Both the position numbers and the translations under genes were made by a program. The notes beneath the pieces are model-generated. The model did not search any database. It was not told the DNA's origin and worked only from the letters and a program-made list of their open reading frames with translations. From Auanema rhodensis (lineage: Eukaryota > Animalia > Nematoda): a DNA stretch of 64,000 bases. Shown piece after piece: positions 15,056 through 21,890 of this stretch; position 1 is the stretch's first letter; each line of letters starts with the position of its first letter. The stretch covers positions 310,001-374,000 of the forward strand of contig OZ059894.1 in NCBI GenBank assembly GCA_964057225.1. Direction: 5' to 3'.

Positions 15056-17322
15056 AGACTAATATGGACATGGGGAATCTAATTTTGAAAACCGCATCTC
15101 TTTATCTTTCACGTGAAGCGAGTTACATACCAAGTGCACATCACGTGTACATTTAATTAGCATAAATTAAAGTTCACGTAAATTTCAAAGTCATGGTTAC
15201 CATGAACCAATATCAATAAAAATTTGTTTTTAGACTAATATGGACATGGGGAATCTAATTTTGAAAACCGCATCTCTTTATCTTTCACGTGAAGCGAGTT
15301 ACATACCAAGTGCACATCACGTGTACATTTAATTAGCATAAATCAAAGTTCACGTAAATTTCAAAGTCATGGTTACCATGAACCAATATCAATAAAAATT
15401 TGTTTTTAGACTAATATGGACATGGGGAATCTAATTTTGAAAACCGCATCTCTTTATCTTTCACGTGAAGCGAGTTACATACCAAGTGCACATCACGTGT
15501 ACATTTAATTAGCATAAATCAAAGTTCACGTAAATTTCAAAGTCATGGTTACCATGAACCAATATCAATAAAAATTTGTTTTTAGACTAATATGGACATG
15601 GGGAATCTAATTTTGAAAACCGCATCTCTTTATCTTTCACGTGAACCGAGTTACATACCAAGTGCACATCACGTGTACATTTAATTAGCATAAATTAAAG
15701 TTCACGTAAATTTCAAAGTCATGGTTACCATGAACCAATATCAATAAAAATTTGTTTTTAGACTAATATGTACATGGGGAATTTTATTTTGAAAACCGCA
15801 TCTCTTTATCTTTCACGTGAAGCGAGTTACATACCAAGTGCACATCACGTGTACATTTAATTAGCATAAATTAAAGTTCACGTAAATTTCAAAGACATGG
15901 TTACCATGAACCAATATCAATGAAAATTTGTTTTTAGACTAATATGGACATGGGGAATCTAATTTTGAAAACCGCATCTCTTTATCTTTCACGTGAAGCG
16001 AGTTACATACCAAGTGCACATCACGTGTACATTTAATTAGCATAAATTAAAGTTCACGTAAATTTCAAAGTCATTGTTACCATGCACCAATATCAATAAA
16101 AATTTGTTTTTAGACTAATATGGACATGGGGAATCTTATTTTGAAAACCGCATCTCTTTATCTTTCACGTGAAGCGAGTTACATACCAAGTGCACATCAC
16201 GTGTACATTTAATTAGCATAAATTAAAGTTCACGTAAATTTCAAAGTCATGGTTACCATGCACCAATATCAATAAAAATTTGTTTTTAGACTAATATGAA
16301 CATGGGGAATCTAATTTTGAAAACCGCATCTCTTTATCTTTCACGTGAAGCGAGTTACATACCAAGTGCACATCACGTGTACATTTAATTAGCATAAATT
16401 AAAGTTCACGTAAATTTTAAAGACATGGTTACCATGAACCAATATCAATGAAAATTTGTTTTTAGACTAATATGGACATGGGGAATCTAATTTTGAAAAC
16501 CGCATCTCTTTATCTTTCACGTGAAGCGAGTTACATACCAAGTGCACATCACGTGTACATTTAATTAGCATAAATTAAAGTTCACGTAAATTTCAAAGTC
16601 ATGGTTACCATGCACCAATATCAATAAAAATTTGTTTTTAGACTAATATGGACATGGGGAATCTTATTTTGAAAACCGCATCTCTTTATCTTTCACGTGA
16701 AGCGAGTTACATACAAAGTGCACATCACGTGTACATTTAATTAGCATAAATTAAAGTTCACGTAAATTTCAAAGTCATGGTTACCATGCACCAATATCAA
16801 TAAAAATTTGTTTTTAGACTAATATGGACATGGGGAATCTAATTTTGAAAACCGCATCTCTTTATCTTTCACGTGAAGCGAGTTACATACCAAGTGCACA
16901 TCACGTGTACATTTAATTAGCATAAATTAAAGTTCACGTAAATTTCAAAGTCATGGTTACCATGAACCAATATCAATGAAAATTTGTTTTTAGACTAATA
17001 TGGACATGGGGAATCAAATTTTGAAAACCGCATCTCTTTATCTTTCACGTGAAGCGAGTTACATACCAAGTGCACATCACGTGTACATTTAATTAGCATA
17101 AATTAAAGTTCACGTAAATTTCAAAGTCATGGTTACCATGCACCAATATCAATAAAAATTTGTTTTTAGACTAATATGGACATGGGGAATCTAATTTTGA
17201 AAACCGCATCTCTTTATCTTTCCTTCCGCGATTTGACCTCGCCTTGGTTGGTCGACTCCTGCTCGTGTCTCTCTGTATCCCATAACGCCGGACTGGTTTT
17301 GCAAGGTACGCTCTCTTTTTTT

Positions 17323-17440
17323 TTTCTTCTTCTCTTTTTTTTTATCTTTCTTCAACTTTCTTCTTCTCTTTTTTTTTATCTTTCTTCAACTTTCTTCTTC
17401 TCTTTTTTTTTATCTTTCTTCAACTTTCTTCTTCTCTTTT
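17323..17440 (+). repeat. 34-bp pyrimidine-rich minisatellite (~3.5 copies) in the LINE 5'UTR
   Basis: ATCTTTCTTCAACTTTCTTCTTCTC(T)n starts at 17344, 17378 and 17412, with a partial unit upstream. Confidence 0.9.
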
Positions 17441-17459
17441 CTTTTCTTCCTGTTATTTC

Positions 17460-17484
17460 ATATATATATATATATTTTTTTTTT
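17460..17484. repeat. (AT)8 microsatellite followed by a T tract in the 5'UTR
   Basis: ATATATATATATATAT then TTTTTTTTT read directly. Confidence 0.85.
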
Positions 17485-17509
17485 ATTTTCTCTGCTCTTT
17501 CACTTAAGT

Positions 17510-18577
17510 ATGTCTCCCGTAACTAACGAGTTTCTTACTACTGCTCTCGAATCACTTTCTGACTCCCTACATAATTCTTTTGCTGAATTATCAGTACAAA
17601 TAAAAAATGAGCTCAGTAGTATTAAAACCGCAGTTGCAAAGCATGACTCCCGTATAACTTTTATAGAAACCGATTTCAAATCTCGTTTCGAAAAGTTAGA
17701 GAAAAAGTTAGCTCAACTTTCTCTCACCAGTACTAACACACTCTCAAATTCACCCTCTTTGCTCTCTTCCTCCAATGTTGCATGTCAAATTCAAAAAATT
17801 AGATCAGAAGAGACAAAGTATGATTATCGATGTAAGAGAGCACTCTGGTTCCGTGTACCGGTCTCTTCCTCGGATTTACCTTCTGACCCTACTTCTTTAC
17901 TTAAACTGGTCATTGAAAAATCCAACGACGCTACTTTGTCTAGTCTGATCAATACTAATCAAATAACTATTGCACGCTGTATCCTCAAATCTAAATCTCC
18001 CGGTCCACTCATCATCACGTGTCCATCGGTTGAATTGCGAGATAAAATTATGACATCTATCAAAACGAATAAAACTAAATGTTTTGAATCTTTATCCAAA
18101 ACTTTCATACGTCGCGACTATCTTCCTTTTGAAATTCAACTGGAAAAGAACCTTCGTGAGGAAGCTAAAGAAAAAAATAAAAACAACACTAAGTCCGTCT
18201 TTTTGGTACGAGATCTCCGACTCATTGAAGTTTTCCGTAATTCGACCGATTCTCCAAATTCCCAAATAGCTCCTGTCCCTGCTTGTAACCAAACTCCCAA
18301 ATCACCATGCCTTCACACTGCTCCTTTATTAACACCACACTCTCAAACACTCACGTCTCCAATTCTTTTATCTAGCCCCCCTTGTAAATCTGGTAGATTA
18401 AGCCGATCGAAGGATAGACAGAATCGCACGTCGAAAGATAAACGTTCTTCTGTTAGCCCAAGACGACGCAAAAATCCACCACGATCTGCAAAGTTAACCT
18501 CAGATCAAATAACCAGGTCTGTTAGCATGAACCCTGCATCTCAACGTGTCGCGTCTGACAAAATGTCCTTTCGTTAA
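17510..18577 (+). CDS. LINE ORF1 protein (355 aa), putative RNA-binding/chaperone
   Basis: ATG-initiated ORF directly upstream of EN-RT. N-terminal coiled-coil-like segment (LSVQIKNELSSIKTAV...FEKLEKKLAQL), central domain ending FIRRDYLPFEIQLEKNLREEAKEKN...FLVRDLRL that resembles ORF1s of invertebrate CR1-like elements, then a Ser/Pro-rich and basic tail. No CCHC zinc knuckle. Confidence 0.85.
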   Translation: MSPVTNEFLTTALESLSDSLHNSFAELSVQIKNELSSIKTAVAKHDSRITFIETDFKSRFEKLEKKLAQLSLTSTNTLSNSPSLLSSSNVACQIQKIRSEETKYDYRCKRALWFRVPVSSSDLPSDPTSLLKLVIEKSNDATLSSLINTNQITIARCILKSKSPGPLIITCPSVELRDKIMTSIKTNKTKCFESLSKTFIRRDYLPFEIQLEKNLREEAKEKNKNNTKSVFLVRDLRLIEVFRNSTDSPNSQIAPVPACNQTPKSPCLHTAPLLTPHSQTLTSPILLSSPPCKSGRLSRSKDRQNRTSKDKRSSVSPRRRKNPPRSAKLTSDQITRSVSMNPASQRVASDKMSFR

Positions 18578-21401
18578 CATTGTCTCGTCCTCAACCCCTC
18601 TTGTCTCTGCTAACCCTACCAGCTTCTCAGTTCAGTGTTTTAATGCACGATCCATCCTAAACAAACTTCATTCACTTTCTCACGTTATTTCCCTATCCTC
18701 TCCTGATATAATTGCTATATCAGAATCTTGGCTTTTTCCAGAGTTCGATTCCTACCTGCTCCCGTGCAAAGATACTTACTCTATTTTTAGAGCCGATAGG
18801 TGTCTTTCACGTGGTGGTGGCGTTGTCCTCTATGTGAAAAGTCATGTCAAAGTCTGTCTCCTTTCCTGCTCTTCCCCTCAATCTTCCATACAATTTATTA
18901 ACTTACTCATTCCTTCACTCAATGCTGTTTTTTCATTGTGTTATCGTCCTCCAACAGCGTCTCATTCAGACTTCATTCTTTTTCTTTCTGATCTTCGTAA
19001 ACAAATTTCTAGACGATCGTTCTTTCTAACAGGCGATCTTAATTTCCCTAAAATTAATTGGGATCTCGGTATTTGCTCACAACCTTGCTCCTCTAGTAAA
19101 TCTATTCTTCAATTTCTCAATGACTGCTGTTCTTATCAGTTAGTAAAATTCCCTACCAGAGGCAAGAACATTCTCGATTATGTTATCACGGATAACATAT
19201 CTAGTGTAGTCAACATAGCTCGTTCTTCTCCCCTCGGTTCCTCGGATCATCATTCTGTTGTCTTCCATATTGTTTCAGACACTTTTCAGCTAGCTACTGC
19301 AATCAACTCTTCCGATATTTCTTCCCCAGCAACACTTCCTATGTTTTCTGATCGTAATTTTCAAGCTGCCGATTACAACCTCATCAACCATAGACTAGCC
19401 AACATTGATTTTGCTAGTCATCTTTCCGGTCTCACTCCTTTAGACTCTTATTCCAAACTTATTCACATTCTTCACTCGGTCATTGATTGCTGCGTACCCA
19501 GGAAACAAGAAAGAAGAAAAAAGAAGATTGACCGAGATATTTTAAAACTCTCTTCTCACATAAACAAACTTAGTTCCTCTTATCATCATCATGATGAATC
19601 CCGCCGTAAAAAACTATCTCTTTCCCTTGATAAACTCATCAAGAATAGATTGGCTTCTGAAGAGGAACGTATTGCTAACTATAACAATTCAAAACTTTTT
19701 TACCGTTTCTGCAGAACTCGTCTGGGCGGCAACACTTCAGATATCCCTGATCTCAAAATAGATAATAATTCTGTCTCGTCTGATTCTGACAAAGCTTCTA
19801 TCTTTGCCAGTACCTTCTCTGTCCACCCTCTTTCTATCTCTTCAGCACATGCTCCTGTTTCCCCTTCTTCTGGTATCATCGATTTTATTGATGTTTCCCC
19901 TCTCAACGTCTACAAAATTCTCTGTCAGTTACCTCTCCGGGTATCAACCTCTCCGGACGGAATTCCTTATTTTTTCCTAAAAAACTGTGCTTCTACTATT
20001 TCTCAGCCTCTAGCCTTTGTCTTTCACAATCTTCTTATTTCTTCTTCTTGCCCTGCTGACTGGAAAACAGCATGGATTCGTCCTGTTCTCAAATCAGGGC
20101 TTTCTTCAAACCCGGTTAATTATCGCCCTATTTCTCTCACATCCAGTCTGTCTAAAGTTTTTGAACGTCTTCTCCGTTCACCTCTTCTTGATTTTGGTAT
20201 TTCCTCCGGCTGTATTTCACCTAATCAGTTTGCTTTTCTTCCAAAACGCAATACTGTATCGGCAATTCTTAGTAGTCATGTACTCTGGAGATCTTCAGTG
20301 GACAAGAAAAGACCTGTTTATGTTGCCTTCATTGACTTCTCCAAGGCTTTCGATCTTATAAATCATTCTGTTCTTTTAACTAAACTGAAATCAATTGGTA
20401 TCGACGGCTGTATTCACTCCTTTCTCAAAAATTTCATTACTGATAGATCCTTCTCGGTATTGGTTAATTATTCTCTATCCGCCACAAATCGTTTGCCCTG
20501 TGGAGTTCCACAAGGGACAGTTCTGGGTCCACTTCTTTTTCTATTTTACATAAATGACATCACATCAAACTTACCCGATGACGTGCATCCAACTCTCTAT
20601 GCGGATGATCTTAAACTAAGCAGCACTAATCCTGTAAGTTTACAATTGGCCTTGGATAACCTGAAAAACTGGTGTCTATTAAACGGTATGAAGGTAAATA
20701 CTACTAAATCTAAAGTTATGATTATATCTAGTACTACTACATCAAGATTAAACACAATTTTCAAATTTGGCGACATCTCGTTAGCCACAGTAACAACGTA
20801 CAAAGATCTTGGTGTATGTACTGACTATAATCTTTCTTTCAATAGCCATATAAATAGAATCTCTAACATCGCTGCTCACAAATGTCGTGTTATCTTGCGT
20901 TGTTTTTACTCAAGATCACCTACCTTGATGTTTAAACTGTTTTGCTGCTATATCAGGCCTATTTTAGAATATGCCTCAGTTGTATGGTCCCCTCAAAATA
21001 ACAAAGATAAAGCACGCATTGAGTCCGTACAAAAAAAGTTCTTAAACGCTATTTTTAAGAGAGCCGAAATAGCTTTGGATTACAAAAACCAGCTATTGTT
21101 TCTTGGAGCTAAGGAACTATCTTTTAGAAGACTGTTAATTGATCTCGTCTTCTATCACAATCAGATAACTAAAAACATTCCAGAAAACAGCCTTAATTTT
21201 TTTACTATCAAGCACTACGCACATTCACTTCGTAGGCATCTATGGAATGTTGAATATCCTGATCTTTGGAGAAGCGAAACAAGAACTGGAATTGAATACA
21301 GAGCTATTCAAATCTGGAACGCTCTTCCTGAAAACATCATTCAACTGAGAAACACCTCCAGCTTCAGAAAACACCTATCTGTTATTTTAAATGATTTTTA
21401 A
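18546..21401 (+). CDS. LINE ORF2: apurinic-like endonuclease plus reverse transcriptase (true start uncertain; probably reached by +1 frameshift at 18566-18574)
   Basis: EN motifs: FNARS, IAISESWL, RGGGVVLYV, YRPP, TGDLN, PTRGKNILD, SSDH. RT motifs: SPDGIP, YRPISLTSSLSKVFE, QFAF, FIDFSKAFD, GVPQGTVLGP, YADD, KDLGV. Frame is open from 18531; the track start at 18546 is GTG; first in-frame ATG is at 19341 (residue 266), after the EN domain. Confidence 0.95.
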   Translation: MSRLTKCPFVNIVSSSTPLVSANPTSFSVQCFNARSILNKLHSLSHVISLSSPDIIAISESWLFPEFDSYLLPCKDTYSIFRADRCLSRGGGVVLYVKSHVKVCLLSCSSPQSSIQFINLLIPSLNAVFSLCYRPPTASHSDFILFLSDLRKQISRRSFFLTGDLNFPKINWDLGICSQPCSSSKSILQFLNDCCSYQLVKFPTRGKNILDYVITDNISSVVNIARSSPLGSSDHHSVVFHIVSDTFQLATAINSSDISSPATLPMFSDRNFQAADYNLINHRLANIDFASHLSGLTPLDSYSKLIHILHSVIDCCVPRKQERRKKKIDRDILKLSSHINKLSSSYHHHDESRRKKLSLSLDKLIKNRLASEEERIANYNNSKLFYRFCRTRLGGNTSDIPDLKIDNNSVSSDSDKASIFASTFSVHPLSISSAHAPVSPSSGIIDFIDVSPLNVYKILCQLPLRVSTSPDGIPYFFLKNCASTISQPLAFVFHNLLISSSCPADWKTAWIRPVLKSGLSSNPVNYRPISLTSSLSKVFERLLRSPLLDFGISSGCISPNQFAFLPKRNTVSAILSSHVLWRSSVDKKRPVYVAFIDFSKAFDLINHSVLLTKLKSIGIDGCIHSFLKNFITDRSFSVLVNYSLSATNRLPCGVPQGTVLGPLLFLFYINDITSNLPDDVHPTLYADDLKLSSTNPVSLQLALDNLKNWCLLNGMKVNTTKSKVMIISSTTTSRLNTIFKFGDISLATVTTYKDLGVCTDYNLSFNSHINRISNIAAHKCRVILRCFYSRSPTLMFKLFCCYIRPILEYASVVWSPQNNKDKARIESVQKKFLNAIFKRAEIALDYKNQLLFLGAKELSFRRLLIDLVFYHNQITKNIPENSLNFFTIKHYAHSLRRHLWNVEYPDLWRSETRTGIEYRAIQIWNALPENIIQLRNTSSFRKHLSVILNDF
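18566..18577 (+). promoter_or_regulatory. Candidate +1 programmed ribosomal frameshift site UCC_UUU_CGU followed by UAA
   Basis: Last ORF1 codons read TCC TTT CGT TAA in frame. ORF2 is in the +1 frame and reads TTC GTT AAC here. The motif and phase match the influenza A PA-X shift site. Confidence 0.7.
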
Positions 21402-21875
21402 CCTGCTCTGATTAATGTAACTTGAAATCTTGCTCATGTATATTTTTTTTTTCCATATTACTAGCCTGCTAGCCTCACTGCATGTTATAGTTAGACAGTT
21501 TCCTAGTTAACCTCCGAGACCTGTTACTATGCTCCGAATCCTATAGACATTAGTCATATGGATCAAGCGTTAGTTACCTCTTACTGTCAGAACGGGCTCG
21601 ACTCATGTCAAGAGTTCCACCGCACCTGTCAGAATACTACAGAGGTCAGTGATCTACACTGAACAACTTTTCTCTCCTCTACCTAACTAGAACTTCGAAA
21701 CTTTAACACACCAGTAGTGCTGTACGCTATCATAATAAAAGGAAATATGCACGACTCGTTTCTTTACATATATCTAGCCAATTATTATGTATGTTTGTAT
21801 TGTAAGGTTCTTCTGTATATCTACAATTTTCTCTATTTATTAACATTATTTCCGCTTTCAACCTGTGATTCGAAC

Positions 21876-21881
21876 AATAAA
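21876..21881 (+). promoter_or_regulatory. Polyadenylation-signal-like AATAAA at the element 3' terminus
   Basis: AATAAA lies 9 nt before the 3' junction. No poly(A) tail follows; the element ends CCCGTTCAA. Confidence 0.6.
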
Positions 21882-21890
21882 CCCGTTCAA

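Follow-up and report, generated by a model that had tools for sequence, protein, structure and literature searches.

A candidate PA-X-type +1 frameshift site at the ORF1/ORF2 junction of a LINE from Auanema rhodensis

The window analyzed here, i.e., the whole stretch of 64,000 nucleotides (nt) from contig OZ059894.1 of the nematode Auanema rhodensis, is filled by a 176-bp satellite array with a single insertion at positions 17223-21890, as defined with Tandem Repeats Finder (TRF) and by alignment of the flanks. Satellite alignment on both sides, the TRF array and a shift in composition delimit this insertion as a full-length, two-ORF non-LTR (non-long terminal repeat) retrotransposon, or long interspersed nuclear element (LINE), of ~4.67 kb on the forward strand. 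It carries the window's only two open reading frames (ORFs) that span at least 150 codons, both of which are intact, and the question considered below is how the second of them is translated.

The ORF1/ORF2 junction

ORF1 (17510-18577, forward strand) encodes 355 amino acids (aa), for which an AlphaFold model and Foldseek indicate the coiled coil, RNA recognition motif (RRM) and C-terminal domain (CTD) of an L1-type ORF1 protein (ORF1p), followed by a low-confidence tail of ~110 aa modelled below pLDDT 50. Entries for human L1 ORF1p made up all of the 11 best Foldseek matches of the model (E 1.5e-5 for the top one), and the match to 2w7a at the sequence level was weak (E 0.0075). ORF2 (18531-21401, forward strand; 956 codons from stop to stop) encodes an apurinic/apyrimidinic-type (APE) endonuclease (EN) and a reverse transcriptase (RT), with matches to PF03372, PF14529 and PF00078 that exceed the Pfam cut-offs and with the endonuclease at residues 37-243.

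The two frames overlap by 47 nt (18531-18577, forward strand), with ORF2 in the +1 frame relative to ORF1. ORF1 ends with ATG TCC TTT CGT TAA (18563-18577), and the predicted shift site, TCC TTT CGT in the ORF1 frame (18566-18574, forward strand), abuts the TAA stop codon (18575-18577). The ATGs at 18527 and 18563 both belong to the ORF1 frame. Near-cognate codons occur in the ORF2 frame at 18534 (CTG), 18546 (GTG) and 18555 (CTG), and the first ORF2-frame ATG lies at 19341, downstream of the endonuclease. This anatomy had been laid out in an initial annotation of the window and was confirmed throughout, including the position of the first ORF2 methionine after the endonuclease; its residue number, given as 266, is 271 when counted from 18531, and 266 fits a count from GTG 18546.

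The junction combines a UUU_CGN in the zero frame, within a +1 overlap, with UCC as the E-site codon. With the codon usage of the element, and for this overlap alone rather than for a whole scan, the chance of finding the exact 9-mer in phase within the 14 overlap codons is ~2e-4, and the chance of any in-phase UUU_CGN is ~0.014. Neither ORF has a second TTT_CGN in frame; TTC or AGA is used in the 5 other Phe-Arg pairs. A shift at this site would yield a fusion protein of 1,296 aa (354+942), the length that had been predicted. RNA folds for 18575-18660, 18480-18565 and 18520-18620 were not more stable than those of mononucleotide shuffles (z 1.0, -0.3 and -0.4, respectively); a hairpin around the shift site was dropped on these z-scores and because position 18580 varies.

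Conservation of the junction in copies, relatives and distant LINEs

The junction region (18200-18900) was compared with contigs from four of 14 listed sequencing runs (X1, X2, X6 and X10); one of these runs may be the source of the window itself, and contigs lose rare variants. Junction-spanning contigs in all four runs differed from the window by 2-11 letters with zero gaps (X10 at a depth of 2). Because no junction indel was found in the contigs of any of the four runs, the +1 layout is a trait of the family and not a defect of one copy. A second subfamily, roughly 89% identical to the window element (56 differing letters in 18351-18851 and 50 in 18403-18851), was found in X2 and X6. It also keeps the phase, as its three single-base gaps at 18609-18614 amount to a net in-frame loss downstream of the site, so that the copy-specific indel that had been named as a threat to the frameshift reading is not borne out in either subfamily. 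Of the 12 changes listed for 18403-18520, 11 fall at third positions of ORF1 codons, and the two lineages therefore diverged under selection. Neither lineage has an ORF2 ATG among the listed changes, and no change is listed for the second subfamily at 18552-18579; the rows at its own level of support end at 18590 among the listed differences, and the 29 others probably lie further to the right. The codon GTG 18546, one of the ORF2 starts suggested at the outset, is GTC in the second subfamily and thus not kept.

Relatives of ORF1 were sought with phmmer among 1.84 billion representative proteins. This search gave 20 matches, 18 of which were looked up (12 nematode names and 1 fungal name). The three best matches (E 3e-23 to 5e-18) are gene models from Auanema sp. 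JU1783 (CAI4220742.1, CAI4221027.1 and CAI4220829.1), which are 30-33% identical to the ORF1 of the window and 39-48% identical to one another. These proteins end with TSFRK, NSFR and STFRK, as compared to MSFR in the window ORF1, and the residue at the E-site position is Ser, Ser and Thr, respectively, at the protein level. The [S/T]FR(K) ending, in an otherwise variable tail, tracks the stop codon rather than the alignment, since its distance from the block last aligned differs between the proteins by as many as 11 residues. In the remaining 7,196 positions of these proteins, there are 16 FR and a single [ST]FR. An [S/T]-F-R(-K)-stop ending in three divergent relatives is what a conserved N_UUU_CGN site predicts, and is the best support for a +1 shift here. 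Were SFR no more than a motif of the protein, the probability of finding these codons in combination with the +1 phase would be ~0.013 for the exact 9-mer and ~0.12 for UUU_CGN.

Four further ORF1 matches are gene models in which ORF1 and the endonuclease are joined; these Pristionchus models (P0011, P0014, P0020 and P0024) may represent natural single-frame elements or false introns. A word-index protein search found no ORF1 relatives from a single protein and only P0009 from a 12-row alignment, and ORF1-based DNA searches for divergent close relatives found none among 50 candidate GTDB contigs and 5 genomes. A P-R-S...I block at ~18482-18520 (ORF1 residues 325-337), modelled as a helix, is common to this ORF1 and the three Auanema proteins; it lies 20-31 residues before the motif Phe, i.e., within the length of the exit tunnel, and one might speculate about a nascent-peptide signal.

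The junctions of more distant LINEs were surveyed in LINE contigs that contaminate bacterial and archaeal genome bins, with relatives that are <40% identical to the window element. From 193 loci (duplicates included), 106 full endonuclease matches in 64 families were obtained; 30 families were dropped for want of a usable ORF1 junction and 34 were scored. ORF2 is in the -1 phase in 15 of these families, and an in-phase X XXY YYZ heptamer was found in 12 of the 15, as compared to 0 of 8 families with ORF2 in the +1 phase (Fisher p 3e-4); the length of some -1 overlaps makes a heptamer more likely to turn up. These heptamers are mostly T TTT TTA, with T TTA AAC and G GGA AAC also represented, and they occur in invertebrate-looking contigs too (L021, L187, L140, L146, L147, L155, L188 and others). 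ORF1 and ORF2 share one frame in 11 families, 6 of which have TGA followed by C; in these six (L040, L045, L093, L096, L118 and L126), a single TGA followed by CTA, CAA or CTC, without an ATG before the endonuclease, represents a candidate readthrough site. Three other same-frame families share TAG GAC. Among the 8 families with ORF2 in the +1 phase, 4 have TTT followed by C or T in the last three ORF1 codons, as compared to 3 of the 26 others (p 0.04), a criterion set after the data were seen and one for which 3 of the 4 families also have an upstream ATG. In L071, L157, L164 and L171, ORF1 ends with TTT TAG or TTT CAG TAA, which are candidate shifty-stop +1 sites. L100, despite a TTT CGT near the end of ORF1, was left out of the supporting cases because its ORF2 lies in the -1 phase. 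L041 and L094 were rejected as +1 families: they end like the -1 family, with T TTA AAC and a stop, and probably represent copies with an indel. In one surveyed family, the copies themselves differ in phase (3 at -1 and 2 at +1). Many of the GTDB bins, namely those behind L002-L081, contain eukaryotic LINE contigs, and 519 stretches were matched. Overall, recoding-like junctions are common in these distant LINEs, and the UUU_CG form seems to be confined to the lineage of the window element.

Alternative explanations and the proposed mechanism

From the sequence features described above, ORF2 of this LINE is probably expressed through a +1 shift at UUU_CGU. Several observations weigh against this reading. 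The missing ATG forces no shift, since human L1 ORF2 is thought to use AUG-independent initiation (PMC5009743), and it is not special to this element, since 23 of the 34 distant families, in all three phases, lack an ORF2 ATG before the endonuclease. UUU_CG was found in 0 of the 8 distant +1 families. The three relatives come from one assembly and are predicted proteins only, in which Phe may be encoded by TTC and Arg by AGR. Their ending also resembles a kinase site, [S/T]-x-[R/K], and all 13 of the other ORF1-only matches lack an FR end (one ends with TF). Lastly, ORF1 third positions differ between the subfamilies at 11 of 40 sites in 18403-18520 as compared to 0 of 17 in 18521-18577 (P ~0.004, post hoc), and 4 of the 5 changes at 18533-18551 in the second subfamily hit ORF2 third positions, a pattern that fits reading in the ORF2 frame from ~18534.

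This pattern bears on an alternative in which a separate ORF2 protein (ORF2p) is started, probably by ribosomes that reinitiate once ORF1 ends, at a near-cognate codon: either CTG 18534, for which the second subfamily has ATA, or CTG 18555. The SFR end would then be a by-product or serve as a motif of the protein. Both subfamilies have a near-cognate codon at 18534, each time with A at -3. At 18533-18551, 3 of 4 ORF2 codons as compared to 0 of 4 ORF1 codons carry synonymous changes, the third positions of ORF1 are frozen from 18521 through to its stop, and dependence of ORF2 translation on ORF1 has been described for L1 and SART1 (PMC2881922). The substitution pattern comes, however, from one sequence pair and from listed differences, was spotted after the fact, and lies in an indel-prone spacer of above-average variability; five changes in 19 nt fit relaxed sequence, and the pattern would also be matched by a conserved RNA signal downstream of relaxed sequence. 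With a near-cognate start, moreover, the exact 9-mer and the [S/T]FR ends would both be fortuitous, and codon 18534 is 41 nt upstream of the ORF1 stop. Because of the pattern at 18533-18551, we keep this alternative in consideration and regard it as unlikely, though by no means negligible. The initial proposal of a +1 shift is partly supported, being strengthened by the protein ends of the three relatives and weakened by the second subfamily.

Other routes to ORF2 appear improbable. If ribosomes started or restarted at ATG 18563 and shifted at the same site, a separate ORF2p with a three-residue leader would be made instead of a fusion. This ATG directly precedes the motif, has AAA upstream, lies 12 nt before the ORF1 stop and shows no change among the listed differences of the second subfamily, but the residue before [S/T]FR in the three relatives is Thr, Asn and Ser rather than Met, which leaves this variant with little probability. 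Splicing that joined ORF1 to ORF2, or supplied a start, without recoding is slightly less probable still: AG acceptors at 18622, 18630 and 18635 precede endonuclease motif I and the Pristionchus models do join the two proteins, but these acceptors would cut a strand before motif I, the Pristionchus models are ambiguous as noted above, and spliced RNA should leave spliced genomic copies, whereas the only joints in the four runs (18397/8 to 18699/700) end with TT..CC and TA..CT. The surveyed family with copies in both phases illustrates how single copies can mislead; for the window element, however, the idea that the offset arose by an indel in one copy, or that the family is dead, and that the motif is fortuitous is largely refuted by the two intact ORFs, the indel-free junction in the four runs and in the second subfamily, and the excess of third-position changes in ORF1, and is the least probable of these explanations.

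A +1 shift at UUU_CGU is somewhat more firmly indicated if the variant starting at ATG 18563 is included. Under the shift mechanism, a small share of ribosomes would slip by one base at UUU_C at the end of ORF1, with the P-site tRNA-Phe re-pairing from UUU to UUC while CGU occupies the A site and UCC the E site, by analogy with PA-X (PMC3498833). No 3' structure would be required, consistent with none having been found here. The product would be the 1,296-aa ORF1-endonuclease-RT fusion beside abundant ORF1p, at a shift level perhaps near 1-2% if the figure for PA-X quoted in PMC5052127 applies. As the fusion would keep the coiled coil, it might be incorporated into trimers of ORF1p and thereby deliver the enzyme to the RNA that encodes it; a low yield would suit an enzyme of which each particle needs few copies. 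In a broader proposal, which we put forward tentatively and with some doubt, a conserved PA-X-type +1 shift would be the sole source of EN-RT in this nematode LINE lineage, which would produce it as a Gag-Pol-like fusion. This would be one branch of a general rule by which CR1/L2-type LINEs set the ratio of ORF1p to ORF2p by recoding (-1 heptamers, +1 UUU_Y sites and leaky TGA-C stops) and switch between these routes in evolution, with L1-style reinitiation as the exception.

Class of the element and comparison with known systems

An ORF2 with APE endonuclease and RT, together with a type II ORF1, places the element in the APE-type two-ORF non-LTR class. In the CR1 clade, short tandem repeats are found at the 3' end; TRF found no array near the 3' end of this LINE, which abuts the satellite directly, without a poly(A) or repeat tail at 21890. 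A quick RT tree, whose other members were unclassified contaminant LINEs only, placed the window element on a long branch (1.79), and "CR1-like" is only a label carried over from the initial annotation. No target-site duplication was seen at 17222/17223 and 21890/21891, where the satellite unit lacks ~32 nt between two CACGTG sites. The 5' untranslated region (17307-17508) contains a GT donor-like site, a long stretch rich in T that includes a 34-bp repeat (17323-17445) and, one base upstream of the ORF1 ATG, an AG, features that could indicate an intron or a trans-splice acceptor. In other collections, the clusters matched in the ESM Atlas, at 0.86-0.90, were all unnamed. A metagenome scan for relatives gave one locus (L001; 31% identical, with ORF2 in the -1 phase and ORF1 truncated), and among viral contigs there were 6 RT matches, all weak, with 25-29% identity.

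Full-text literature searches, judged by titles and the starts of abstracts, found no paper that places UCC_UUU_CGU or UUU_CGN in a LINE, although older papers on CR1-type elements of mosquito, C. elegans and chicken, as well as Repbase reports, may contain proposals of frameshifting, and shift sites may be named in the supplements of PMC5405496. The word "frameshift" does not occur in PMC4120745 or PMC13343379, and the passages of PMC5006619 and PMC1965478 contain nothing on a UUU_CGU site in LINEs. The novelty is narrower than first stated: it concerns the PA-X motif as a LINE shift site, not frameshifted ORF2 as such, which had already been proposed for Paramecium (+1) and Dictyostelium TRE elements (-1). 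For ORF2 translation in LINEs other than L1 and SART1, a nine-letter site with a known mechanism would provide a testable route. If the shift occurs, it would represent use of a PA-X-type motif outside viruses, by a chromosomal element decoded by host ribosomes, a possibility left open in the 2012 PA-X paper (PMC3498833). A fused ORF1-EN-RT would also alter the view of LINE particle assembly, and would explain why many intact LINEs seem "broken", or without an ORF2 start, in annotation.

Among known systems, LINEs of the CR1/L2 type with a type II ORF1 (PMC4120745) share with the window element an ORF2 with APE and RT and an ORF1 with coiled coil, RRM and CTD; in the window element, no 3' tandem-repeat tail was found. 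Human L1 and silkworm SART1 likewise have a bicistronic RNA in which ORF2 depends on translation of ORF1, but they restart to make a separate ORF2p (PMC2881922), whereas the window element has no ATG before the endonuclease. Frameshifting has been proposed for ORF2 of Paramecium non-LTR groups 1-2 (PMC5405496; +1 or reinitiation) and of Dictyostelium TRE5-A and TRE3-A (PMC5911963; -1); these elements belong to other clades, the TRE shift is in the opposite direction, and the passages concerned do not name a shift site. In amalgaviruses and at other predicted UUU_CGN sites, the polymerase ORF is linked by a +1 shift to an ORF upstream of it (PMC5052127), as is proposed here, but amalgaviruses are RNA viruses with overlaps of 287-968 nt, as compared to an overlap of 47 nt and an EN-RT polymerase in the LINE. 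The closest likeness is to influenza A PA-X (PMC3498833), which has the identical nine letters UCC_UUU_CGU in the zero frame, a +1 frame that continues with GUN and no significant 3' structure. Shifting in PA-X has no evident stimulators and a very low level (PMC5009743), quoted as ~1-2% (PMC5052127). The site of the PA-X shift and its direction were established by mass spectrometry, and slippage of the P-site tRNA-Phe from UUU to UUC is favoured (PMC3498833); the LINE site, by contrast, is predicted from sequence alone, resides in a chromosomal retrotransposon and consists of the last three sense codons of ORF1, with UAA following at once.

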